The notes beneath the pieces were generated by a model. It was not told the origin of the DNA and did no database searches. It saw nothing but the letters and a program-made list of their open reading frames with translations. The translations under genes and the position numbers were made by a program. A DNA stretch of 30,231 nucleotides from a virus (taxonomy: Duplodnaviria; Heunggongvirae; Uroviricota; Caudoviricetes): IMG/VR virus record IMGVR_UViG_2695420421_000005. One strand, written 5' to 3'. Every line of letters begins with the position of its first letter. Within the stretch, counting starts at the first letter, position 1. Shown piece by piece: positions 4,141-30,231 of this stretch.

Positions 4141-4332
4141 TTACTCCCCGTTCACCGAAAAATCACGATAGAAACGTTTCCACATACGATAAGTCTGCGC
4201 GAGTTGTTCACCACGAAACATCGCCTTCCTGGCCTTCATGTTTTCCTTGTGAGACTTTCGATCTATGAACCAAAACCATTGCTGGAACACACAAAGCAAG
4301 AGACACAAAGATAATATCCACTGATTACCCAT
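4141..4332 (-). CDS. Possible small membrane protein (63 aa) translationally coupled to repA
   Basis: ATG at 4332 overlaps the repA stop; hydrophobic ILSLCLLLCVFQQWFWFI followed by a basic tail; short, so uncertain. Confidence 0.3.
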   Translation of the reverse strand: MGNQWILSLCLLLCVFQQWFWFIDRKSHKENMKARKAMFRGEQLAQTYRMWKRFYRDFSVNGE

Positions 4333-7300
4333 AGAAAGCGCCCTGCTCTTCGTAGCTGCATGAGCTATTCCCGGTAATGTATTCTCGTAACCGCCGCAGT
4401 TCATTGCTGGACAAGTGATCCATGAACTCTGTGAGGTACAGAGATGCAAACGTCATAGCTATGCTGGTTGATGACCATGATGACATAGTGGCCAGCTCCT
4501 CACCGGAAAGCGCACTCATCGCCCAGGACTCAGGAACAGCCACCGGCAATACGGCCAAAGCCTCAGAAATTACTGAATGAGGGGCGTTTTGAACCTGCTC
4601 GTTTGTGGATCGCGTTTTATCATCCATATATATATTGAGATCCAAATCGCGATCCATTTCGATGGCTGTCTTCTCGGCTTTACGCGTTTTTAGGGTTAGG
4701 CCATCTTTCTGACGCTGAACAAGAATATCCAGCATAAATGCCGCTGATTCAGGCTCAACAAAACGCAAGGTTGGACGCTTATCGCCGTCTCTGCCGCGAC
4801 GTTTACCTGTTTTAAGGCCAAGAGAGTCGCAAATGTTTTTAAACAACGCTTCCGGCACTTTAGGCTTCCCTTTTGGCGTCATAAAACCACCAATGTGCAG
4901 AACGTTATTCAACAGGTCACGGCGTTCGGCTGTCATGAGATTATCTCGAGCGAATTTGAGACGCTCCTGAGTCGCCTCGCCGGTCATAGTCTCAGGGTTG
5001 ATACCGCAGTCGATAAAGTACTGCCGGAGAGTTGCTGATTTAAGCGCATAGAAACCGCGCGCCCCGACTTCAACAGTAGGAGTAGCTTTTACCTTGTGAT
5101 CGATTATTCCAGGGAATTTAGTTTTAAAGACATCATCAGCCTGCTCGCGAGTCATCGCGGTCACTACAAAATATTGCCACTGTCCCGCCTGACGGTATGC
5201 GTAGGTAAAATTGATGGCTGCTTCTTCCCGGTCGTAACGACGAGCTGTTACCTCATCTAAAAGCATTGTTTCATAGCGGCGAACTTTGTCTCGAGCACCA
5301 TCGAAATAGAATTTCAGTGTGCCTTCTTCAACCGGTAGTTTCAGTTCGTTTTCAATATCCCAGCGGACAAGTTTTGCCTGTTCTTCAAGCGTCAGCGCGC
5401 GTTTTTTTAGCAGTTCTTCACGCTCTGATTCTTGTGGAGTTTCTGTATTGAGGTGCAGATCCAGTGTCTGTTCCCACACAATATCCCGCGCTTCTTTACG
5501 CAGATCTTTACCGATATCATTCGCAGCATAATCGGTGCCCAGCGGCGATACCTTATAACCGTCGCTGTGCATGATGCAGATCATGTTGCTGGCGTAGTCG
5601 TTACGCGCAGTCGCTTCAATTGCGGCTGCTTTAATTTTCATCCTGGTAAAGTCGGTATTGGCCACCCCCATTGATATACGGTCGCCATCGAAAATGACAT
5701 CCGTCAGTTCACCGTTCATACCTGCGGTAGCAAGCAATGCCTGGGCGAATGCTCGTTCTATTTTTTGCGGGTCAGTTTCACGTTTTGCACGAGCTTTATC
5801 AAAGCCGATAATAAATTCTTTTGCTGTACGGTCGCGGCGTAGCATTTGCACTGCGTCGCTGGGTACAACTTCACCACAGAACATGCCGAAATGACGGTCA
5901 AAATGTTTTTGCTCAATCGACACGCCGGATGAAATAGACGGGCTATAAATCAGGCCGTCGTATTTTTTGACCATCTTTTTCGGTTGATTGGTAAATGCTT
6001 CAACTTCTGGCTCTGGTTTGTTTTTCTGGTTTACACACAGAAATTTCTTACCAGGAAAATGCATTCTCAGGGTGGCTGTCACATCTTCTGCAAAGGTGGA
6101 GCTGTCGGTGGCCAACATGATTTTTTCGCCATCCGATACAGCTTTCACCACCTCGGTCATGATGCGATCTTTTTCTGTATAAAAAACCCGGATTGGCTCA
6201 CCTGTTTCGCGGTTGCGAACATCAACAGGTAATTCAATTACGTGGATCTGCAGCCATGCCGGTAAACCTAGTTCTTCACGGCGTTTCATAGCCAGTTCAG
6301 CCAGGTCAACCAGCAGATCGTTCGCATCAGCATCCACCATGATTGGGTGTTGTTCCGTTCTGGCCAGCGCGTCAATTAGCGTATTGAATACAGCCACCGG
6401 GTTTTCCATAGCCCGACCGGAAAGAACGGCACGTAGCCCTTGTGTGGCCTCGTCAAAGCCAAAATAGTCGTGCTGGCGCATCAACGGTTGCCAGCAGTTT
6501 TTAACAATCGAGTTTATGCAGATGGTCAGTTTACTGGCGTATGGAGCCATTTCCTGATAGCCAGGGTCCTGATAGTGCAGGATATCGGCTTTTACACCTT
6601 TTCCTTCAGTCATCATTTCCCACAGGCCACCAATAAGGGAAACACGGTGAGCTACAGAGATACCGCGTTCTGAGCTATGCATTAACGGTCGTAACAATCC
6701 AGTAGATTTGCCGGAACCCATACCAGCACGAACGATGACGATCCCCTGTAGTGATTGCACGTACTTCAGGACGTCATCGGTCATTACCGAAGTTTCAAAA
6801 CGCTTATAGGTGATATGTTGAGGGCGTTTATTGGGATCAGTTATGCGTTCGCTGAAAGAGCGCGGAGCCTGGGCAATACGGCACTTTTTATTCAGGCGAC
6901 GGGCAATGTGGTCTTTTACCGTAGCGCGATAGATATTTTCCAGCCCCATTTCACGCAGAACGATGCAGAACATGTTAAACAAATCTGACGGACTGTTAGG
7001 AACCGGACAGGTTAGCATGCCAATATCCACCGCTCTCAGCAGCTCTTTGGCAAAAGTACGACGGTTATCCCGCTTAATTGTCTTCAGGCGGTTGAGCGTC
7101 AGAGATAGCAAATCAGTGCCGGTTTTCAGGCGGTTTGCTGTTGCAAATAGTTGACGTGCTGTTTCACGAAGTCCACGTAGTTTGTGCAGGTCGTTGAAGT
7201 CACTGCACTCCATTTGCGGATCGTCTTCAAAAGTTGGATAGACGCAGCGGACATCGTTGAATTTCGATAAGATTTCATAGCCAGTCCGCAGGCCGGTATT

Positions 7301-8320
7301 CCCTTTTCCTTCTGTGGCTGATTTCCGGTCATTATCCAGTGCGCAGGTGATTTTTGCCGCCGGGTACATGTTTACCAGTTGTTCCACAACATGAACCATG
7401 TTGTTAGCGGATACAGCGACAACCACAGCGTCAAAGCGTTTATCTTTTTTCGTGGCAAGCCAGATGGATGCACCAGTAGCAAAACCTTCTGTAACAGCGA
7501 TGTTTTGCGCCCCTTTCAGCTCACCGATAACAAAGCAGGCACCGACGAAATCGCCGCTGGTTACTGCGCTGGTCTGGTATTTCCCACCTTGTTTGTCGAT
7601 TCGCTGCCAACCCACAATACGACCATCGTAACGACCGTCCAGGTGAGCCAGAGGGATAGCCATATATGTGGTTGGCCCCCGGTTCCATTTCGCACTGTCG
7701 TGACTGGTCACGCGACGCACATCACATGAACTAAAAACGTCACGAATACCTTTTTTAATCGCATATGGCCATGAGCCGTCTTCTGCAGGAGCATGTTCCC
7801 ACGCGCTGTGGAATGCCAGCCATCCCAGCAAACGTTCATGGTCCATTTGGTTGTTTTTCAGGTCATTAATTCGTTTTTGTTCTTCACGGCGACGACGTGC
7901 TTCGGCCTGACGTTTTATTCTTGCCCGTTCTTCTTCCGGTTGTGCGACCACGGTCGCATTATTCCGTTGTTGCTCACGGCGATATTCAGAAAACAGGAAG
8001 GAGAAACCGCTCCATGAGCCAGCATCGCTGCCTTTATGGACGAAGTTAATGAACGGGTAATCAATCCCTTTGCTGTGTTCCAGCCGGGAGTAAATTTCTA
8101 CGCGTCCTTTGAGGCTCTTTTCGAGAGCTTCTGGAGATGTTTTATTGTATGAAGAGTAACGCTCAACACCCCCGCGAGGGTTGAGTTGGATGTTGTCGGA
8201 ACAGGCAGACCAGTTGATACCAGCCATCTGTGCCAGCTCGGTTAGTTCATCCCGTGCTGCTTCAATTAGCGAGAACGGATCGCTGCCAAAGCGATCCGCA
8301 TAGAAATCGTTTAATGTCAT
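4325..8320 (-). CDS. repA: Replication protein RepA (primase-helicase), 1331 aa
   Basis: Size and position match N15 RepA (~1320 aa); Walker A motif GMGSGKST in the helicase region; sits between the telN side and the cB immunity region as in N15. Confidence 0.93.
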   Translation of the reverse strand: MTLNDFYADRFGSDPFSLIEAARDELTELAQMAGINWSACSDNIQLNPRGGVERYSSYNKTSPEALEKSLKGRVEIYSRLEHSKGIDYPFINFVHKGSDAGSWSGFSFLFSEYRREQQRNNATVVAQPEEERARIKRQAEARRRREEQKRINDLKNNQMDHERLLGWLAFHSAWEHAPAEDGSWPYAIKKGIRDVFSSCDVRRVTSHDSAKWNRGPTTYMAIPLAHLDGRYDGRIVGWQRIDKQGGKYQTSAVTSGDFVGACFVIGELKGAQNIAVTEGFATGASIWLATKKDKRFDAVVVAVSANNMVHVVEQLVNMYPAAKITCALDNDRKSATEGKGNTGLRTGYEILSKFNDVRCVYPTFEDDPQMECSDFNDLHKLRGLRETARQLFATANRLKTGTDLLSLTLNRLKTIKRDNRRTFAKELLRAVDIGMLTCPVPNSPSDLFNMFCIVLREMGLENIYRATVKDHIARRLNKKCRIAQAPRSFSERITDPNKRPQHITYKRFETSVMTDDVLKYVQSLQGIVIVRAGMGSGKSTGLLRPLMHSSERGISVAHRVSLIGGLWEMMTEGKGVKADILHYQDPGYQEMAPYASKLTICINSIVKNCWQPLMRQHDYFGFDEATQGLRAVLSGRAMENPVAVFNTLIDALARTEQHPIMVDADANDLLVDLAELAMKRREELGLPAWLQIHVIELPVDVRNRETGEPIRVFYTEKDRIMTEVVKAVSDGEKIMLATDSSTFAEDVTATLRMHFPGKKFLCVNQKNKPEPEVEAFTNQPKKMVKKYDGLIYSPSISSGVSIEQKHFDRHFGMFCGEVVPSDAVQMLRRDRTAKEFIIGFDKARAKRETDPQKIERAFAQALLATAGMNGELTDVIFDGDRISMGVANTDFTRMKIKAAAIEATARNDYASNMICIMHSDGYKVSPLGTDYAANDIGKDLRKEARDIVWEQTLDLHLNTETPQESEREELLKKRALTLEEQAKLVRWDIENELKLPVEEGTLKFYFDGARDKVRRYETMLLDEVTARRYDREEAAINFTYAYRQAGQWQYFVVTAMTREQADDVFKTKFPGIIDHKVKATPTVEVGARGFYALKSATLRQYFIDCGINPETMTGEATQERLKFARDNLMTAERRDLLNNVLHIGGFMTPKGKPKVPEALFKNICDSLGLKTGKRRGRDGDKRPTLRFVEPESAAFMLDILVQRQKDGLTLKTRKAEKTAIEMDRDLDLNIYMDDKTRSTNEQVQNAPHSVISEALAVLPVAVPESWAMSALSGEELATMSSWSSTSIAMTFASLYLTEFMDHLSSNELRRLREYITGNSSCSYEEQGAFYG
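7943..7958. repeat. sopC-like centromere-type inverted repeat TGCGACC-AC-GGTCGCA (copy 1, inside repA coding sequence)
   Basis: 7-bp inverted arms with 2-bp spacer, same architecture as the F sopC core TGGGACC-AC-GGTCCCA; five copies in this window. Confidence 0.5.
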
Positions 8321-8565: not shown

Positions 8566-9162
8566 TCATCTACCCTCAACCATGAATGATTTGATCGTTC
8601 CGACTATTTGGTGAACAAATTCAAGATCGCTTTTCCTGAAGATGGCGCGTTGTGAATTTGTTCCGTCCAGATAGTAATTTTCATCATCAAAACGGGCCAG
8701 GCGCTGGATGGTGATATTTCCTGCAGTATCACGAACCAGAACATCCTCGCCGGGGACCAGTTCCAGCGCAGAATCGACCAGGAGAAAATCGCCAGGCTGA
8801 TAGTTTCCCTGCGCCAGATTGCTGATAGTTAACGCATAAACAGTATTGCGCTGGCTGATGAATGGCAGGAATCGCTCAGTATTTGGAACCTGTCCTGGCT
8901 TCCACTCTTCATCAGGTCCACTTTCAGTTGTGCCAATAACAGGAATGCGATCAGGGTCATATTCTGTCCCATACAGCACCCAATGCACTGGCTTGCGTAA
9001 GCATTTAGCCAGGGCAATACCTATCTCCAGTGACGGCATTACGTCGCCACGTTCTAAGTTTTGGACGCCTGCAATAGAGATATCGACAGCCTCAGCAACT
9101 TCTCGCAACGTCAGCTTCATCTCTAAACGGCGTGCTTTCAGTCGTTCGCCTCGTGTTTTCAT
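8566..9162 (-). CDS. cB: Prophage repressor CB (CI-like: N-terminal HTH plus C-terminal S24/LexA-like domain), 198 aa
   Basis: N-terminal HTH (LTLREVAEAVDISIAGVQNLERG) and C-terminal peptidase S24-like fold region; divergent from cro across an operator-containing spacer. Confidence 0.9.
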   Translation of the reverse strand: MKTRGERLKARRLEMKLTLREVAEAVDISIAGVQNLERGDVMPSLEIGIALAKCLRKPVHWVLYGTEYDPDRIPVIGTTESGPDEEWKPGQVPNTERFLPFISQRNTVYALTISNLAQGNYQPGDFLLVDSALELVPGEDVLVRDTAGNITIQRLARFDDENYYLDGTNSQRAIFRKSDLEFVHQIVGTIKSFMVEGR

Positions 9163-15795: not shown

Positions 15796-15809
15796 GCGAT
15801 GCGCATCGC
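15796..15809. promoter_or_regulatory. Perfect 14-bp palindrome GCGATGCGCATCGC ~35 bp upstream of the methyltransferase start
   Basis: Self-complementary sequence read directly; function unknown. Confidence 0.4.
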
Positions 15810-15843
15810 CGGGTTAGCTTACCCAGGCAAAAAAATAATAGCT

Positions 15844-16920
15844 ATGTTCAAAACCACTAATATTCATGGCGCACAACTCGTTTGCGCAGATTCTCTGCAA
15901 TTTATCAAAACCATCCCTGATAACTCGGTCAATTTGATTGCAACAGACCCACCATACTTCGGCGTAAAGGCTAACGCATGGGATAACCAGTGGGATAGCG
16001 ATGCTGACTTTTTGGGGTGGATTGACGAATTTTTGGCAGAATTTTGGCGGATATTGGCCCCTAATGGCAGCCTGTATATGTTTACCGGCTCTCGCCTTGC
16101 GTCAAAAATTGAATTATTAACTCGCGACCGTTTCAATGTTCTGAACCATATTATTTGGGCTAAACCCAGTGGTATGTGGCGCGGTTGTCATAAAGAAAGT
16201 TTAAGGGCTTATTTTCCTGCTACTGAAAGAATATTATTTGCAGAGCATTACGGCGCGTCAGGTTATGCTAAAGGTCAGTCAGGTTATGCTTCAAAATGTG
16301 CAGATTTAAGAAAAAATATTTTTTCTCCACTAATTGATGCTTTTTCGCTGGCTCGCCGTCAGTTAGATATATCAGCCGCAGACATTAATTCAGCGACAGG
16401 AAAGCAGATGTGTTCACACTGGTTTTCTTATTCGCAGTGGCGGCTTCCATCATTAATTGATTTTAATAAACTATGCGAATTATTTCGCAGGAAGGCAGAT
16501 TCACTCGGTGTCCCGTGTCCATATCCTTTTAATGTTGATTATTCAGAACATGAAAAGCGTTATAGCGATCTGAAATTGCATTATGAGGAAGTAAAGAAGC
16601 AGTATGATGATTTGAAGGCTCAGTATGAAAATTTACGCCGTCCATTTCATGTTACTGCTGATGTACCTTATACCGATGTATGGGAGTTTCCTCCTGTGCA
16701 ATATTATCCTGGCAAGCACCCATGTGAAAAACCTGCAGCGATGATGGAACATATTATAAAGAGTAGTTCACGCCCCGGAGATATCGTTGCCGATTTCTTT
16801 ATGGGATCAGGCTCAACTATTAAAGCTGCGCTGAAGTTAGGACGTCAGGCAATAGGTATTGAGATTGAGGGCGAACGTTATCTTCAGACAGTTGATGAAG
16901 TGAAAAAGTTATTTGAGTAA
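15844..16920 (+). CDS. DNA methyltransferase, beta-class N6-adenine/N4-cytosine type (358 aa)
   Basis: N-terminal DPPY motif (LIATDPPYFGV) and C-terminal AdoMet-binding FFMGSGST in beta-class order; the ORF-track start at 15799 runs through the palindrome, the ATG at 15844 is more likely. Confidence 0.85.
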   Translation: MFKTTNIHGAQLVCADSLQFIKTIPDNSVNLIATDPPYFGVKANAWDNQWDSDADFLGWIDEFLAEFWRILAPNGSLYMFTGSRLASKIELLTRDRFNVLNHIIWAKPSGMWRGCHKESLRAYFPATERILFAEHYGASGYAKGQSGYASKCADLRKNIFSPLIDAFSLARRQLDISAADINSATGKQMCSHWFSYSQWRLPSLIDFNKLCELFRRKADSLGVPCPYPFNVDYSEHEKRYSDLKLHYEEVKKQYDDLKAQYENLRRPFHVTADVPYTDVWEFPPVQYYPGKHPCEKPAAMMEHIIKSSSRPGDIVADFFMGSGSTIKAALKLGRQAIGIEIEGERYLQTVDEVKKLFE

Positions 16921-17015: not shown

Positions 17016-17288
17016 ATGAAGATGGATGAACGATACAGCAGTGCATCTTATGGTAGCGCTGGTCTTGCTGCGTTCTTTGCCAGCCTGTCATTGCAGGATT
17101 GGGGCTTCATTATCGGTGTCGCGTTCAGCATTATCCTCGGTGTGCTTACATACCGGCTCAATAAACGCGAGCAGATGAAGCGCACGAAGATATTGCAGGA
17201 CATATTGGATAAAACTAATACCAATAATCTTTCTGCTACAGCGATGGTTATTGGAGAGCTGGGGAAGAGAGCACCGAAGGAAATATGA
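17016..17288 (+). CDS. Holin with dual-start motif (MKM...), 90 aa
   Basis: Starts ATG-AAG-ATG as in lambda S; two hydrophobic segments; immediately upstream of and overlapping the endolysin gene. Confidence 0.7.
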
Positions 17289-17785
17289 TGCAGTCATCAT
17301 TACGCAAAGCTGTCACAGCTGCTATTGGTGGCGGGGCTATTGCCATAGCGTCTATGCTCATCACTGGCCCAAGTGGTAACGATGGTCTGGAAGGTGTCAG
17401 TTACATACCATACAAAGATATTGTTGGCGTATGGACTGTATGTTACGGACACACTGGAAAAGACATCATGCTAGGTAAAACGTATACCGAAGCAGAATGC
17501 AAAGCTCTCCTGAATAAAGACCTTGCCACTGTCGCCAGACAAATTAACCCGTACATCAAAGTCGATATACCGGAAACAACGCGCGGCGCTCTTTACTCGT
17601 TCGTTTACAACGTGGGCGCTGGTAATTTCAGAACATCGACGCTTCTTCGCAAAATAAACCAGGGCGATATCAAAGGCGCATGTGATCAGCTACGTCGCTG
17701 GATATCTGCTGGCGGTAAGCAATGGAAAGGCCTGATGACTCGTCGTGAGATTGAGCGTGAAGTCTGTTTGTGGGGTCAACAATGA
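17285..17785 (+). CDS. R: SAR endolysin (phage 21 R21-like lysozyme with N-terminal signal-arrest-release domain), 166 aa
   Basis: N-terminal weakly hydrophobic Gly/Ala-rich SAR segment [18 protein letters not shown] and close resemblance to phage 21 R as I recall it. Confidence 0.9.
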
Positions 17786-18219
17786 GCAGGGTAACCGCGA
17801 TTATCTCCGCTCTGGTTATTTGCATCATCGTCTGCCTGTCGTGGGCTGTTAATCATTACCGTGATAACGCCATCGCCTACAAAGAGCAGCGCGATAAAGC
17901 CACATCCACAATCGCTGATATGCAGAAGCGTCAACGTGACGTAGCAGAACTCGATGCCAGATATACAAAGGAGCTTGCTGATGCTAACGCGACTATCGAA
18001 AGCCTCCGTGCTGATGTTTCTGCTGGGCGTAAGCGCCTGCAAGTCGCCGCCACCTGTGCAAAGTCAACGACCGGAGCCAGCGGCATGGGCAATGGAGAAA
18101 GCCCAAGACTTACAGCAGATGCTGAACTCAATTATTACCGTCTCCGAAGTGGGATCGACAGGATAACTGCGCAGGTTAACTACTTGCAGGAATACATCAA
18201 GACGCAATGCCTGAATTAA
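17782..18219 (+). CDS. Rz: i-spanin Rz (145 aa)
   Basis: N-terminus [31 protein letters not shown] as in lambda Rz; ATGA overlap with the endolysin gene. Confidence 0.9.
17981..18166 (+). CDS. Rz1: o-spanin Rz1 lipoprotein embedded in Rz (+1 frame), ~61 aa
   Basis: Signal peptide with lipobox-like ...LLGVSAC, proline-rich mature region; AAGGAG 7 nt upstream of ATG 17981 (the ORF track also allows 17954). Confidence 0.75.
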
Positions 18220-18572: not shown

Positions 18573-18592
18573 AAATCTCTTTGTTTCTCGTT

Positions 18593-18608
18593 TGCGACCG
18601 TGGTCGCA
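18593..18608. repeat. sopC-like inverted repeat TGCGACC-GT-GGTCGCA (copy 4)
   Basis: Same motif, immediately left of direct repeat A. Confidence 0.5.
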
Positions 18609-18619
18609 CATTAAATACC

Positions 18620-18795
18620 GCGCTGCATCGTCGCCGTATTTCCGCATTAACCATGACCGTAGCCCGACGGGGAACTCCTCTGCGCGAGTGTGCGGAAATA
18701 ATCAAAAACGATGCACACCGGGTTTTTACCGCGCTAATGATTCGCGGGTTTGTCCCTCATGCTCGCCAGTCCTGTGCGAGGGTGGAAGAAACAGG
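18620..18795 (+). repeat. Direct repeat A (~176 bp), ~90% identical to repeat B at 20405-20581
   Basis: Aligned by eye: long identical blocks (GAGTGTGCGG.AATAATCAAAAACGATGCACACCGGGTTTTTACCGCG; CCCTCATGCTCGCCAGTCCTGTGCGAGGGTGGAAGAAAC) with a short variable segment near the 5' end. Confidence 0.75.
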
Positions 18796-18812
18796 GCATG
18801 TATTCAGGAGCG

Positions 18813-18828
18813 TGCGACCGTGGTCGCA
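18813..18828. repeat. sopC-like inverted repeat TGCGACC-GT-GGTCGCA (copy 5)
   Basis: Same motif, immediately right of direct repeat A and 25 bp upstream of the gene X start. Confidence 0.5.
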
Positions 18829-18852
18829 CGGTATCTTTGTCAGGAGGTTTTG

Positions 18853-19713
18853 ATGAAAGAGTTGCAAAAAATTAATTCAATAATGGAAAGGTTAAGTGCT
18901 CTTGAGCGTAAGCTGGACGATTGTGGAAAGCTGTGTGTTGAAAAGCAAAATGAGCTTTACCGGGAATTTTTTACAATCGTAAGTGAGCTGATGCCAATTG
19001 TTAATAACTGCCTGATGACATCCAGATTTTTTAATGTCGATGCTACTACATCCAGAAAATTTTCTGTGAAAATTCAAGAAAGAGTTTCTGGTAGTGTGAC
19101 AAGAGAGATGGCTGAACAGTTGGTGGCAATGAGCAATAAAACAAAAAGAAAAAAGGCATTGCTTGTAACAGCAAATCAGCTTTCAGGGCGCGTTGACTTT
19201 CAGGTCAGACAGGGTGGGCGTGTACTGGTAAATGATGCGTTCGTTGGACGTAGCTTTAGTCCTTACTCGATGAAATATGATGTTGATGCAGATGATCAGG
19301 ATATCAGCATTTCCTGGAAATCTGAGACAGCAGGGATTGTATTAACAGCAGAGTTGTTGAATGATGATAAAAATGATGTCCAGCATCATTTGGACGAAAA
19401 GAATCATATTTCTGAAATTTGTATGAAGCCACGCAGCGGAATGACTTTATTGTCACGCACTCTTGCTGCTGGCTTTTCTGCACCGGAAAAACGTGTGCTT
19501 CTGGTAGTGCCTGAAGATGCAGATATTCGACCACTGAATGGCTGTGATGTTATTAGTGCAAAAACATTGCATACCCGCGTCATTCCTGTACCGGATGTGG
19601 TCATTATTGATGATGTTGAGAAATGCAAGTCTGTTTCCTCAACTGCCACAATCAAGCGAATTTTACGTTGTAGCACGTCGGCTGTTGTATTCCGGAAGCA
19701 GTTACATAACTAA
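18853..19713 (+). CDS. Hypothetical protein X (286 aa), AT-rich gene of unknown function
   Basis: AGGAGG 6 nt upstream of ATG 18853; the ORF-track N-terminal extension from 18592 runs through the repeat and palindromes and is rejected; no motif recognised. Confidence 0.75.
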   Translation: MKELQKINSIMERLSALERKLDDCGKLCVEKQNELYREFFTIVSELMPIVNNCLMTSRFFNVDATTSRKFSVKIQERVSGSVTREMAEQLVAMSNKTKRKKALLVTANQLSGRVDFQVRQGGRVLVNDAFVGRSFSPYSMKYDVDADDQDISISWKSETAGIVLTAELLNDDKNDVQHHLDEKNHISEICMKPRSGMTLLSRTLAAGFSAPEKRVLLVVPEDADIRPLNGCDVISAKTLHTRVIPVPDVVIIDDVEKCKSVSSTATIKRILRCSTSAVVFRKQLHN

Positions 19714-20835: not shown

Positions 20836-21355
20836 ATGGAAGTCAACAAAAAGCAGCTGGCTGATATTTTCGGTGCGAGTATCCGTACCATTCAGAACTG
20901 GCAGGAGCAGGGAATGCCCGTTTTGCGAGGCGGTGGCAAGGGTAATGAGGTGCTTTATGATTCTGCCGCCGTCATAAAATGGTATGCCGAAAGGGATGCT
21001 GAAATTGAGAACGAAAAGCTGCGCCGGGAGGTTGAAGAACTGCGGCTGGCCAGCGAGGCAGATCTTCACCCCGGAACACTTGAATTTGAGCGCCATCGCC
21101 TGACTCGTGCTCAGGCGACGGCGCAGGAACTGAAAAATGCCAAAGAATCGGCTGAAGTGGTGGAAACCGCATTCTGTACTTTCGTGCTGTCGCGTATAGC
21201 AAGGGAAATATCCAGTATTCTCGACGGTATTCCTCTGTCGGTGCAGCGACGTTTTCCTGAGCTGGATAACCGGCATATTGATTTCCTGAAACGGGATATC
21301 ATCAAAGCCATGAACAAAGCAGCCGCGCTGGATGAACTGATACCGGGGTTGCTGA

Positions 21356-21381
<26 letters not shown>
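20836..21381 (+). CDS. nu1: Terminase small subunit Nu1 (lambda-like), 181 aa
   Basis: Near-identical to lambda Nu1 (MEVNKKQLADIFGASIRTIQNWQEQGMPVLRGGGKGNEVLYDSAAVIKWYAERDAEIENEKLRREVEELR...). Confidence 0.95.
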
Positions 21382-25062
<3,681 letters not shown>

Positions 25063-25082
<20 letters not shown>

Positions 25083-25584
25083 TCTCCCGCATATTGCCAG
25101 CATGGCTTTTAATGAGCCGCTGATGCTTGAACCCGCCTATGCGCGGGTTTTCTTTTGTGCGCTTGCAGGCCAGCTTGGGATCAGCCGCCTGACGGATGCA
25201 GTATCCGGCGACAGCCTGACTGCCGGAGAGGCACCCGCGGCGCTGGCGTTATCCGGTGATGATGACGGACCACGACAGGCCCGCAGTTATCAGGTCATGA
25301 ACGGCATCGCCGTGCTGCCGGTGTCCGGTACGCTGGTCAGTCGGACGCGGGCGCTGCAGCCGTATTCGGGAATGACTGGTTACAACGGCATTATCGCCCG
25401 TCTGCAACAGGCTGCCAGTGACCCGATGGTGGACGGCATTCTGCTCGATATGGATACGCCAGGCGGAATGGTGGCGGGGGCATTTGACTGCGCTGACATC
25501 ATCGCCCGTGTGCGTGACATAAAGCCGGTATGGGCGCTGGCAGTCGCTGGACATATGCTGGCGGTAAGCAATGGAAAGGGCTGA
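25063..25584 (+). pseudogene. C: Truncated head protease/scaffold gene C (lambda-like): first ~160 codons then an unrelated 13-codon tail and stop
   Basis: GTG start and MTAELRNLPHIASMAFNEPLMLEPAYARVFFCALAGQLGIS... match lambda gpC up to ...[11 protein letters not shown]; sequence then switches to the 3' end of an endolysin gene. Confidence 0.85.
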
Positions 25585-25634
25585 TGACCCGTCGTGAGAT
25601 TGAGCGTGAAGTCTGTTTGTGGGGGCAGCAATGA
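25543..25634 (+). pseudogene. 3' remnant of a SAR-endolysin gene (last ~29 codons: ...[29 protein letters not shown])
   Basis: ~93% identical at DNA level to the 3' end of the intact endolysin gene at 17696-17785; no upstream part of the gene present. Confidence 0.8.
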
Positions 25635-26095
25635 GCAGAGTCACCGCGATTATCTCCGCTCTGGTTATCTGCATCATCGTCTGCCTGTCATGGGCTGTTA
25701 ATCATTACCGTGATAACGCCATTACCTACAAAGAGCAGCGCGACAAAAACGCAAGAGAACTGAAGCTGGCGAACGCAACCATTACTGACATGCAGCAGAG
25801 ACAGCGTGATGTTAATGCACTCGATGCTAAATACACGAAGGAGTTAGCTGATGCGAAAGCTGAAAATGAAACTCTGCGCGCTGATGTTGCCGCTGGTCGT
25901 CGTCGGTTGCACATCAAAGCAGTCTGTCAGTCAGTGCGTGAAGCCACCACCGCCTCCGGCGTGGATAATGCAACCAGCCCCCGACTGGCAGACACCGCTG
26001 AACGGGATTATTTCACCCTCAGAGAGCGGCTGATGACGATGCAGATGCAACTGGAAGGGGCACAGGAGTATATCCGCACTCAGTGCATTAAGTAG
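25631..26095 (+). CDS. Rz: i-spanin Rz (second copy, closer to lambda Rz), 154 aa
   Basis: [49 protein letters not shown]... resembles lambda Rz. Confidence 0.9.
25851..26033 (+). CDS. Rz1: o-spanin Rz1 (second copy), 60 aa
   Basis: [20 protein letters not shown] lipoprotein signal and PPPPP region as in lambda Rz1; embedded in Rz in the +1 frame. Confidence 0.85.
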
Positions 26096-26137
26096 CCTTT
26101 TTATCGTGGTAAACATTTCGCAGGGTATGAGGTATTT

Positions 26138-26488
26138 ATGCCATCACTAATCCCACGTGCCTGCCGTAAGCGTGGATGTGCAGGTACAACCACAGACAGT
26201 TCGGGTTACTGCGATAAACATCGCGGTGAAGGCTGGGTGCAGCACCAGCGCGGACTGAGCCGCCACCAGCGTGGCTATGGCTCAAAATGGACGGTGATTC
26301 GTGCCCGTATTCTGAAGCGCGATAAAGGTCTGTGTCAGTTGTGTCTGCGTGTCGGTGTGGTGAGCGAGGCGAAAACCGTCGACCACATCATCCCGAAAGC
26401 GCATGGCGGAACAGACGCAGACAGCAACCTGCAGAGTCTGTGCTGGCCCTGCCATAAAGCGAAAACAGCGCGCGAACGAATCCGGTGA
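26138..26488 (+). CDS. HNH endonuclease (phage packaging-associated), 116 aa
   Basis: HNH motif DHIIPKAHGGTDADSNLQSLCWPCHKAKT; located immediately upstream of terS. Confidence 0.85.
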   Translation: MPSLIPRACRKRGCAGTTTDSSGYCDKHRGEGWVQHQRGLSRHQRGYGSKWTVIRARILKRDKGLCQLCLRVGVVSEAKTVDHIIPKAHGGTDADSNLQSLCWPCHKAKTARERIR

Positions 26489-26506
26489 TAATTATTCTCA
26501 CTTGTA

Positions 26507-26570
26507 GGGAGGGGCGGGGCAAATCCCTGTGACCTGACGTCTTCCGGACTGCCCGCCCCATCGTTTTTTT
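26507..26570 (+). terminator. GC-rich imperfect hairpin plus T7 between the HNH and terS genes (terminator and/or part of the cos region of the HK97-like module)
   Basis: GGGGCGGGGC (26511-26520) pairs with GCCCGCCCC (26551-26559), followed by TTTTTTT at 26564-26570. Confidence 0.4.
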
Positions 26571-26609
26571 ATACCCGCGAAAAATGAAATTTAACCAGGA
26601 GTGCCGCAT

Positions 26610-27104
26610 ATGGCTGGAACGGCGGGGCGTTCCGGGCGTCGCCCCAAGCCAACGGCGCGCAAGGCGCTGGCCGGAAACCCCGGCAAGCGAGCCCTGAACA
26701 AAGATGAACCTGTTTTTACGCCCATCAAAGGTGTTGAGCCACCAGAGTGGTTCGCTGAAGAAGATCTCCCTCTCGCCACGATCATGTGGCAACTGACAAC
26801 CAAAGAACTCTGCGGTCAGGGCCTGCTGTGCGTGACTGACCTGGCGGTACTTGAGCGGTGGTGCGTGGCCTATGAGTTCTGGCGACGTGCCGTGAAAAAT
26901 ATTGCCATACAGGGCAACACCATCACCGGTGCAATGGGCGGCAGGGTCAAAAATCCGGAGCTGACCGCCAAAAAAGAACAGGAGTCCGAGATGAGCAGCA
27001 CGGGGGCAATGCTCGGACTCGACCCCAGCAGCCGCCAGCGTCTGATTGGCCTGGCGGGGCAGAAGAAAGCCACTAACCCGTTTCTGAAAATTATCGAATC
27101 ATGA
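26610..27104 (+). CDS. Terminase small subunit (P27/HK97 family), 164 aa from ATG 26610
   Basis: N-terminus [30 protein letters not shown] typical of P27-family small terminases; AGGAG 8 nt upstream. Confidence 0.85.
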
Positions 27105-28834
27105 GCCGGAAATCTTACCCCAACGTAAATGCTGCAAATCAGTATGCCCGGGATGTCGTGCGCGGAAAGATTGTTGCCTGCCAGTTTGTGATTCAGGCCT
27201 GCCAGCGCCATCTTGATGACCTGATGGCGGAAAAAAGTAAGTCGTTTCGTTACCGCTTCGACAAGGACCTGGCTGAACGGGCCGCGAAATTTATTCAGCT
27301 GTTGCCGCACACCAAGGGGGAGTGGGCATTCAAACGGATGCCCATCACGCTGGAGCCGTGGCAGCTATTTGTGATCTGCTGTGCGTTTGGCTGGGTCAAT
27401 AAAGGCACCCGGTTGCGCCGCTTCCGGGAGGTGTACACCGAAATCCCCCGTAAGAACGGCAAATCAGCAATCTCTGCCGGTGTTGCCCTGTATTGTTTTG
27501 CCTGTGATAACGAGTTTGGCGCGGAAGTGTATTCCGGTGCCACGACAGAGAAACAGGCGTGGGAAGTCTTTCGCCCGGCGCGACTGATGTGTAAACGCAC
27601 ACCCATGCTGACGGAAGCGTTCGGGATTGAGGTTAACGCCTCAAACATGAACCGTCCGGAGGATGGCGCGCGGTTTGAACCGCTGATCGGCAACCCAGGT
27701 GATGGTTCATCACCCCACTGTGCCGTGGTTGATGAATATCACGAGCATGCCACCGATGCGCTTTATACCACAATGCTTACCGGGATGGGGGCGCGACGTC
27801 AGCCACTGATGTGGGCCATCACCACCGCCGGGTACAACATTGAGGGGCCGTGCTACGACAAGCGGCGGGAAGTCATCGAGATGCTCAACGGCTCGGTGCC
27901 TAACGATGAACTGTTCGGGATCATCTATACCGTTGATGAAGGTGACGACTGGACCGGCCCGCAGGTGCTGGAAAAAGCCAATCCAAATATTGGCGTGTCG
28001 GTTTATCGCGAATTTTTGTTAAGTCAGCAGCAGCGTGCGAAAAATAACGCCCGTCTGGCAAACGTCTTTAAAACAAAACACCTCAATATCTGGGTGTCGG
28101 CGCGTTCGGCGTATTTCAACTTGGTGAGCTGGCAGAGCTGCGAGGATAAATCACTGACCCTTGAGCAGTTCGAGGGGCAGCCGTGCATTCTGGCCTTTGA
28201 CCTGGCGCGTAAGCTGGATATGAACAGCATGGCGCGACTTTATACCCGCGAGATTGACGGTAAAACGCATTACTACAGTGTGGCCCCGCGTTTCTGGGTA
28301 CCGTATGACACGGTGTACAGCGTCGAGAAAAATGAAGATCGACGGACAGCCGAACGCTTTCAGAAATGGGTGGAAATGGGCGTTCTGACCGTTACCGATG
28401 GTGCGGAGGTGGATTATCGCTACATCCTCGAGGAGGCCAAAGCGGCGAACAAAATCAGCCCGGTCAGTGAGTCACCCATCGACCCCTTCGGGGCGACCGG
28501 GTTGTCACATGACCTTGCTGATGAAGACCTGAATCCCGTCACTATCGTCCAGAACTTCACCAATATGTCCGATCCGATGAAAGAGCTGGAAGCAGCGATT
28601 GAATCGGGACGTTTTCATCATGACGGCAATCCCATCATGACCTGGTGTATCGGCAACGTGGTCGGCAAAAACATGCCGGGTAACGATGATGTGGTGAAAC
28701 CCGTCAAAGAGCAGGCGGAAAACAAAATCGATGGTGCAGTTGCGCTGATTATGGCGGTTGGCAGAGCCATGCTGTACGAGAAAGAAGACACGCTGTCTGA
28801 CCACATTGAGTCCTACGGGATCCGCTCGCTTTAA
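27101..28834 (+). CDS. Terminase large subunit (HK97-like), 577 aa
   Basis: Size, position and ATGA coupling to terS; followed by a portal gene. Confidence 0.85.
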
Positions 28835-28845
28835 CTGAGGTAATT

Positions 28846-29028
28846 ATGATCATGCTGATTCTCGCGCCTCTGGTGGGCGTGCTGGGTGCGCTTTTGCTGG
28901 CGTATGGTGCCTGGCTGATTTATCCCCCGGCGGGTTTTGTTGTTGCCGGGGCGCTGTGCCTGTTCTGGTCGTGGCTGGTGGCGCGATATCTCGACCGTAC
29001 ACGGCAGTCTGTCGGCGGAGGTAAATAG
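28846..29028 (+). CDS. Small hydrophobic protein (60 aa) between terL and portal
   Basis: Two hydrophobic segments; TGAGG upstream of ATG. Confidence 0.55.
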
Positions 29029-30184
29029 TGTTCTTTTCGGGATTATTTCAACGAAAAAGCGATGTGCCGGTGACCACGCCAGCAGAACTGCTGATGCTAT
29101 CGGGCTGTCATACGACACCTATACCGGAAAGCGGATCAGTAGCCAGCGGGCCATGCGCCTGACGGCGGTCTATTCTTGCGTCAGGGTGCTGGCAGAGTCT
29201 GTTGGTATGCTGCCCTGCAGTCTCTACAAAATCAGCGGTACCCTGAAAACACGGGCGGTGGATGAACGACTGCATAAGTTGGTTTCGGCAAAACCTAATG
29301 GCTACATGACACCGCAGGAATTCTGGGAGCTGGTTATTGTCTGCCTGTGTCTACGGGGGAATTTTTACGCCTACAAGGTAAAGGCACTGGGAGAAGTGGT
29401 GGAGCTTCTTCCGATAGATCCGGGCTGTGTGGAACCGAAGCTGAACAGCCAGTGGCAGCCGGTTTATCAGGTGACGTTTCCGGATGGTTCCGTGGATGTG
29501 TTGACCCAGAATGAAATCTGGCATGTGCGCACCCTGACGCTGGATGGACTTGTCGGGCTGAATCCCATTGCGTATGCGCGTGAGGCCATTTCACTGGCAG
29601 CGGCAACCGAGGAGCACGGTGCCAGGTTGTTTAGTAATGGTGCGGTGACATCCGGTGTGTTGCGTACGGAACAAAAGCTCACGCCGGATGCTTACGAGCG
29701 TCTGAAGAAAGATTTTGAGGAGTGTCACACGGGGCTTGGCAATGCTCACCGCCCGATGATTCTGGAAATGGGGCTGGACTGGAAGTCGATGGCGCTGAAC
29801 GCCGAGGACAGTCAGTTCCTGGAAACCCGCAAGTTTCAGCTGGAAGAAATCTGTCGTCTGTTCCGGGTGCCGTTGCACATGGTGCAGAACACCGATCGCG
29901 CCACCTTCAACAATATCGAAGAGCTGGGGCTGGGATTTATCAACTATTCACTGGTGCCGTATCTGACCCGCATCGAACAGCGGATCAACACCGGACTGGT
30001 ACGAAAAAGTAAGCAGGGCGTTTATTACGCCAAATTTAACGCCGGGGCGTTACTGCGCGGGGATATGAAGTCCCGTTTTGAAGCCTACGCCACCGGGATC
30101 AACTGGGGAATTTACTCTTCCAATGACTGCCGCGACCTGGAAGATATGAATCCGCGTCCCGGTGGTGTAATGCCGATCAGTTAA
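29028..30184 (+). CDS. Portal protein (HK97 family) with apparent +1/-1 frame change near 29090 (possible pseudogene or sequencing error)
   Basis: GGAGG 6 nt upstream of GTG 29028 opens a frame reading [22 protein letters not shown] that stops at 29160; the long portal-like ORF (ADAIGLSYDTYTGKRISSQRAMRLTAVYSCVRV...) is in another frame with no in-frame start until the Met in AMRL. Confidence 0.7.
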
Positions 30185-30231
30185 GGATCAGTTGACCGAT
30201 CCAGTGGCTGTGTAAGAATCCGGAAACGCTC

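Follow-up and report, generated by a model that had tools for sequence, protein, structure and literature searches.

A frameshifted and IS4-truncated portal gene in a prophage remnant of Shigella sonnei

Genes and lesions at the portal locus

The window, by which we mean the whole stretch of 30,231 nucleotides that was analysed (IMG/VR record IMGVR_UViG_2695420421_000005), carries a series of phage genes on the plus strand near its right-hand end. From left to right these are an Rz spanin gene at 25619..26095 with an embedded Rz1 ORF at 25851-26033 (PF03245 Phage_lysis is found at the same place in S. sonnei chromosomes), an intact gene for an HNH endonuclease of 116 aa at 26138..26488 (PF01844, E=1.6e-16) in the position of the phiP27 L34 HNH gene, an intact gene for a terminase small subunit (TerS) of the P27 family at 26601..27104 (164-167 aa; PF05119, E=3.9e-20; homologues are annotated likewise), an intact gene for a terminase large subunit (TerL) of 577 aa at 27101..28834 (PF03354 and PF20441; recorded in Shigella sonnei under the name terminase large subunit) and a gene for a ymfR-like small membrane protein of 60 aa at 28846..29028, whose homologues are annotated as ymfR or membrane protein. 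The portal gene follows directly, and it is interrupted at two places.

At the 5' end a Shine-Dalgarno motif GGAGGT can be read at 29017..29022 on the plus strand, 5 nt upstream of a GTG at 29028 that shares one base with the TAG (29026-29028) of the ymfR-like gene. The ORF listing of the window gives a 44-aa ORF from this GTG (29028..29162), which begins MFFSGLFQRKSDVPVTTPAELLMLSG, translates in full as MFFSGLFQRKSDVPVTTPAELLMLSGCHTTPIPESGSVASGPCA and closes at the TGA at 29160-29162. The portal body is found in another frame, -1 relative to that of the GTG, within an ORF at 28937..30184 that carries ...ADAIGLSYDTYTGKRISSQRAMRLTAVYSCVRV... The original prediction had described both features, a plausible portal N-terminus opened by a strong ribosome binding site and ending at 29160 and a body read in a different frame, and we found both as described. 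In the DNA alignments the short ORF on the plus strand consists of 21 native codons (MFFSGLFQRKSDVPVTTPAEL), 23 out-of-frame codons and the TGA. Over the first 21 codons 20 of 21 residues match the N-terminus of the phiP27 portal, and the portals annotated in phiP27 (NP_543090.1, 413 aa) and in E. coli A36 (WP_240745495.1) likewise begin at this GTG over the ymfR stop. The resemblance is thus not due to chance.

The DNA alignments and a repair test place a 1-bp deletion at 29090..29091 (plus strand), where a G was lost from CTG-GCN at codon 21/22. The homologues read CTGGCG or CTGGCT at this point and the window reads CTGC; in the wider context the homologous sequence is GA(G)CTGGC(G/A)GA and that of the window is GAACTGCTGA, with a single gap in both DNA alignments. 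Reinserting one G at 29090/29091 restored ...PAELADAIGL... and a frame of 380 codons with 0 stops and 0 gaps, as had been proposed for a one-base insertion near 29090. From residue 1 onwards the repaired portal is 97.4% identical to phiP27, 97.6% to A36 and 91.3% to ST64B.

The portal body, which is read in the -1 frame and comprises codons 22-380 of about 413, occupies 29091..30167 on the plus strand and contains the whole Phage_portal domain without any further stop or indel. Within it lies the 343-aa ORF that gene callers report at this place in S. sonnei genomes. It runs on the plus strand from an internal ATG at 29153 to 30184, where it ends ...PRPGGVMPIS at a TAA 17 nt inside IS4. Against PF04860 Phage_portal the stretch 29153-30184 scored 359.8 bits (E=1.7e-107; match cut-off 39.1 bits) across profile positions 2-321 of 321. 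According to Pfam the domain corresponds to residues 47-373 of the intact protein, so that both lesions fall just outside it, and a domain-complete protein of 343 aa could in principle arise from the ATG at 29153, as far as can be judged from the sequence. The closest solved structure is that of the HK97 portal (8CEZ/8FQL), to which residues 17-387 of the phiP27 orthologue were matched with HMMER at E=1.5e-53.

The second lesion lies at the 3' end. The match to every intact portal ends at 30167, and the sequence from 30168 (TAATGCCGATCAGTTAAGGATCAG...) matches the stretch directly upstream of an annotated IS4 transposase gene. It is the left end of IS4 (TAATGCCGATCAGTTAAG...), and the window contains the first 64 bp of the element only (30168..30231, plus strand) before the contig ends. 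In two S. sonnei genomes (loci L008 and L009) the complete element, which extends from TAATGCCGATCAGTTAAG to CTTAACTGACTGGCATTA, is exactly 1426 bp long. Its ends form an imperfect inverted repeat, and it encodes a transposase of 442 aa with the domains Nterm_IS4 (PF13006) and DDE_Tnp_1 (PF01609). In its length of 1426 bp, its terminal inverted repeats and its IS4-type DDE transposase it agrees with IS4. The element removes the last 33 portal codons: the intact protein goes on ...PRPGGDVYLTPMNMTT... for 33 residues, in place of which we observed 5 IS4-encoded residues followed by the stop inside IS4.

A simple insertion of IS4 would be flanked by a target duplication, which measures 11-13 bp for this element, and by the rest of the target gene. 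The right flanks read GCTCATTGAGC... or CAGCCCTTGAGC... and are neither portal sequence nor a repeat of the left flank CGCGTCCCGGTGGTG, and thus IS4 marks the end point of a deletion or rearrangement. For most S. sonnei chromosomes we found the IS4 interrupted by an insertion of 1336 bp that encodes IS3-family transposase proteins of 121 aa and 301 aa (interrupted region at 9068-11829 in L011 and L006), followed by bamE and recN. In the two genomes with the uninterrupted element (9068-10493 in L008 and L009) raiA-pheL-pheA follow instead. Judged by the sizes, the 1336-bp insertion could well be IS2 together with a duplication of 5 bp. The arrangement indicates a nested IS insertion and an IS-mediated rearrangement between S. 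sonnei lineages. We also noticed that two unrelated IS4 copies have left flanks which resemble each other. At 30153-30167 of the window CGTCCCGGTGGTG is followed by TAATGCC, and at 2500-2513 of locus L004, where the copy sits on an S. dysenteriae plasmid, CGTCCCCGGCGGCG is followed by TAATGCC. This is consistent with a target-site preference of IS4.

As a whole the chromosomal stretch represents the right-hand stump left by a phiP27/SfV/SfIV/ST64B-like prophage. Between 26.3 and 30.2 kb the window shows 83-95% DNA identity to phiP27, SfV, SfIV and ST64B, and the remnant consists of the 3' end of an endolysin gene, Rz/Rz1, the HNH endonuclease, TerS, TerL, ymfR and the disrupted portal gene. 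Further upstream in the S. sonnei chromosome there are DnaB-like, RusA, Q, holin and lysozyme genes. As the window itself stops 64 nt into IS4, we judged the loss of genes downstream from the S. sonnei chromosomes. A tblastn search of the seven loci L005-L011 with the C-terminus of the phiP27 portal, the prohead protease and the capsid protein returned no match. The usual upstream neighbours of such a portal gene (HNH, TerS, TerL) are present and the prohead protease and major capsid genes expected downstream are absent, and this loss of particle-forming genes, the mark of a cryptic prophage, was found on chromosomal loci 100% identical to the window.

Intact homologues and occurrence in Shigella sonnei

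To see how the gene looks when undamaged we compared the locus with intact relatives. With 28840-29400 as the query, megablast detected homologous ymfR-portal junctions in 20 records of phages and 1394 of E. coli, and in all but one of the full-length matches listed the subject span was one base longer than the query span. Complete genomes of E. coli matched the 5' region of the portal gene with 95.6% identity at best, and hence the frameshift allele is absent from that collection. We then searched the repaired portal protein against a collection of 5.8 billion proteins. This yielded hundreds of intact homologues of 403-416 aa, each covering 100% of the repaired query, from E. coli, Plesiomonas, Leminorella, Pectobacterium, Yersinia, Edwardsiella, Morganella and Serratia. 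All intact homologues that we inspected start MFFxGxF, at a GTG or ATG. The internal Met is thus not the natural start of the portal, a possibility that the original prediction had allowed for, and the N-terminus belongs to the conserved portion of the protein. Since it has been kept from E. coli to Serratia, Morganella and Edwardsiella, its loss is a real defect. The intact homologues are encoded by one uninterrupted frame of about 403-416 aa that begins at MFF... and runs through to the C-terminus, and the window lacks such a frame. With a 1-bp deletion at codon 22 and IS4 after codon 380, the gene is therefore a pseudogene of the PF04860 family and not a functional member of it.

Four known systems are instructive here. 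phiP27 (portal NP_543090.1, L38) and A36, whose portals are near-identical to each other, share with the window the gene order HNH, cos, TerS, TerL, ymfR-like gene and portal. However, their portal is intact at 413 aa and genes for prohead protease and major capsid protein come after it, whereas that of the window is one G short at codon 22, runs into IS4 after codon 380 and has no morphogenesis genes downstream. The HK97 portal gp3 (8CEZ, 8FQL) is a distant homologue, linked through the phiP27 orthologue, and the window copy is by contrast a pseudogene. The closest analogue in kind is the cryptic prophage e14 of E. coli K-12, which has a homologous ymfR-portal junction (86% DNA identity) and is likewise a decayed prophage with a shortened portal and deleted head genes. 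Its portal remnant, which we take to be beeE in K-12 nomenclature, is named 'phage portal protein, incomplete' by PGAP. The e14 gene differs in that its 5' portal frame is correct and ends after about 136 codons at a deletion abutting a baseplate J pseudogene. In E. coli 23CRST031 the homologous portal AC6I2E_RS19555 bears the independent PGAP annotation 'frameshifted', but CTGGCA is intact at the site of the window's deletion. The frameshift of that gene hence lies elsewhere, and a prohead protease gene still follows it. The comparison with HK97-family portals from E. coli prophages that had been suggested as a check reveals the missing G against phiP27, A36, ST64B and e14 alike, four genes that are intact or decayed independently and have their start at the same GTG.

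We then studied how often the damaged allele occurs. By BLAST the part of the window from 25543 to 30231 is 100% identical to four complete chromosomes (L005, L006, L007 and L011), including CP000038.1, which we take to be the chromosome of S. sonnei Ss046, and 99.98% identical to three further loci, over the full length or as far as the contig end. The 40-nt frameshift allele was observed in 20 of 20 independent loci with this prophage (L005-L014 and L016-L025), complete chromosomes among them, and the portal/IS4 junction in all 17 independent loci that reach that point. An exact-protein look-up placed the 343-aa ORF in 1695 blocks of an assembly collection and the TerL protein (27101-28834) in 4305 blocks, many complete chromosomes among the latter. 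The product of the 343-aa ORF is found on at least 1000 contigs named Shigella sonnei, and all named members of its cluster are Shigella sonnei. Relative to the intact orthologues the lesion is therefore a real disruption of the frame: the missing base is a fixed feature of the S. sonnei lineage and not an assembly artefact or a homopolymer error. As S. sonnei is clonal, these genomes represent many independent sequencing experiments but only one mutational event, and so their number proves that the base is missing and tells nothing about selection. Exact-pattern scans gave zero hits for the frameshift allele and zero for the intact allele in species-representative contigs, and zero for either allele in metagenome contigs; both sets are without this S. 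sonnei sequence, and these zeros do not constitute negative evidence.

In CP000038.1 the place is annotated with a 'portal' ORF of 414 aa (L011 7840-9084) that begins at a TTG inside ymfR. Its first ~51 residues come from the 3' end of ymfR and the 5' end of the portal gene, both translated out of frame, and they are without homologues. This N-terminus is an annotation artefact due to the frameshift.

The two parts of the contig

The window agrees with contig CXFA01000066.1 (assembly GCA_001257695.1, 30231 nt) at all positions except 25542, where the window has an A and the contig an N. This single-N scaffold gap separates two parts of different origin, a phage-plasmid at 1-25541 and the S. 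sonnei remnant at 25543-30231. CXFA01000117.1, a second contig from this assembly, shows no difference up to 25541 and goes on from there with a complete gpC, D, E, FI, FII, Z, U and V. We found no microhomology at the join that would be a sign of illegitimate recombination, and the fused C' ORF that results from it was found in no other assembly. Together with the continuation in CXFA01000117.1 this shows that scaffolding has brought the two terminase/portal sets together artificially. The portal pseudogene is chromosomal and not part of the plasmid. We had also considered a real hybrid phage-plasmid with two packaging modules (a lambda-like Nu1/A/W/B and a P27-like HNH/TerS/TerL/portal module), and rejected it because the join is a single N and CXFA01000117.1 runs normally into gpC-D-E. 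The fused ORF itself is a fake ORF of 173 aa at 25063-25584, in which a lambda-type gpC fragment is joined to the 3' end of the endolysin gene of the chromosomal prophage.

An N15-like linear phage-plasmid of a Shigella sonnei isolate makes up the left-hand part (1-25541). With E. coli plasmids of ~46 kb in which a 'CyRepA1 family' replication protein is annotated it shares 97-98% identity. On the minus strand it encodes a RepA-like replication protein of 1331 aa (4325-8320) and a CI-like HTH/S24 repressor (8566-9162). It further carries genes for a protelomerase of the TelK/TelN type (213-2120) and an N6/N4 DNA methyltransferase (15799-16920), a cassette of holin, lysozyme and Rz (17016-18219) and the lambda-type genes Nu1/A/W/B (20836-25082). 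A perfect palindrome of 42 bp at 1-42 (ACATAATTCCCCATTATACGC followed by GCGTATAATGGGGAATTATGT, with the core ...CCATTATACGCGCGTATAATGG...) lies 170 nt upstream of the protelomerase gene. It looks as if the contig had been read around telL, the hairpin telomere of the linear plasmid. Its core resembles the telO site of N15/KO2, and telomeres of this type are a feature of N15. Between the lysis cassette and cos/Nu1 there is an ORF of 373 aa with a TTG start and no Pfam match (18592-19713), for which gene callers give 286 aa (L015 1791-2651). It is equal in length to the methyltransferase ORF and by Pfam unrelated to it.

The original prediction was correct about the deletion. It had overlooked the IS4 at 30168, the absence of head and tail genes and the scaffolding to an unrelated left-hand part of 25.5 kb.

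Interpretation of the disrupted portal gene

By far the most probable explanation is that we are dealing with an HK97-family portal pseudogene that carries two independent inactivating lesions and belongs to a decayed phiP27/SfV/ST64B-like prophage of the S. sonnei chromosome. Both lesions can be read directly in the window. After the loss of one G at 29090/29091 (codon 22), ribosomes starting at the native GTG at 29028 would make a peptide of 44 residues and halt at the TGA at 29160. The insertion of IS4 at 30168 takes away the last 33 codons and goes along with the loss of everything downstream, that is the prohead protease, capsid, connector and tail genes. Genes for morphogenesis downstream of the portal were seen in none of the loci examined. 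A remnant with intact Rz/Rz1, HNH, TerS, TerL and ymfR would be unable to build a particle. From the sequence we infer that no functional portal is made and that the element is probably inert for particle production. What speaks against a pseudogene is the position of both lesions outside the Phage_portal domain and a body that has acquired no other stop or indel. The suggestion of an inactivating mutation in a defective prophage is nevertheless right, as the same deletion is present in every one of the independent loci, and the presence of the lesions in many genomes is a direct observation.

There are several other possible reasons why two frames might be seen here. The G could be present in the cell and have been lost only in this short-read assembly through a sequencing, homopolymer or assembly error. 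The window is after all a draft scaffold with a demonstrable artefact, the single-N mis-join at 25542, and the deleted base is part of a GG dinucleotide. However, two consecutive G do not make a long homopolymer, the scaffold gap is 3.5 kb away from the lesion, and the identical allele recurs in all 20 independent loci, with the ORF created by the deletion on 1000 contigs or more. We give this explanation practically no credence, and the homopolymer or assembly error that the original prediction had kept as an alternative can be discarded. A programmed -1 ribosomal frameshift or other recoding that joins both frames into a full-length portal is vanishingly improbable as well. The -1 frame is open over the whole overlap from 28937 and a slip by -1 anywhere from 29028 to 29160 would join the two frames, but the zero frame of 29028-29162 holds no slippery heptamer of the type X XXY YYZ. 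Moreover, intact homologues are encoded in a single frame at this place, so that the two-frame layout is not conserved, and the gene is in addition truncated by IS4 and without capsid genes as partners.

It is also very unlikely that the 343-aa ORF, starting at the ATG at 29153, is itself the functional gene, with the 44-aa ORF as a leader and, for example, termination-reinitiation at the overlapping ATGCGCCTGA. In its favour are the complete PF04860 domain, an ATG that precedes the stop codon TGA of the leader ORF by 7 nt and the intact HNH, TerS and TerL genes next to it. These have to be weighed against a start that lies about 42 residues upstream (MFF...) in intact homologues and is conserved across Enterobacterales, the lack of a good Shine-Dalgarno sequence before 29153 and the exchange of the C-terminal 33 residues for 5 encoded by IS4. 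No protease, capsid or tail genes are left in the loci examined, and the clonal youth of S. sonnei would explain the intact neighbours. A variant of this idea, to which we assign an extremely low probability, is that the 343-aa fragment is still translated by reinitiation at the ATG at 29153 and has been retained together with HNH-TerS-TerL for some function. In that case it might for instance poison the portal-ring assembly of superinfecting HK97/P27-like phages or support packaging by a helper phage.

We thus return to the pseudogene as the reading that we prefer. The S. sonnei clone is young, and we infer that the intact genes next to the portal (HNH, TerS and TerL) reflect this youth and not selection. 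The locus is an ordinary pseudogene, neither a sequencing error nor a new mechanism. Its sequence has been public since the Ss046 genome, in which it is annotated as the 414-aa ORF with the spurious N-terminus. Our search of the literature on S. sonnei, prophage, pseudogene and IS4 returned general papers, none of which describes this locus.

For annotation this means that the 343-aa 'portal protein' entries are pseudogene fragments and that the N-terminus of the 414-aa ORF in CP000038.1, which crosses ymfR in the wrong frame, is spurious. For quality control it means that the contig of the window is mis-scaffolded and does not represent a phage-plasmid with two packaging modules. Pseudogenisation driven by IS elements is well documented in Shigella (for example PMC8072062). 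In biological terms the finding is minor and adds one more case of IS- and indel-driven gene decay in Shigella.
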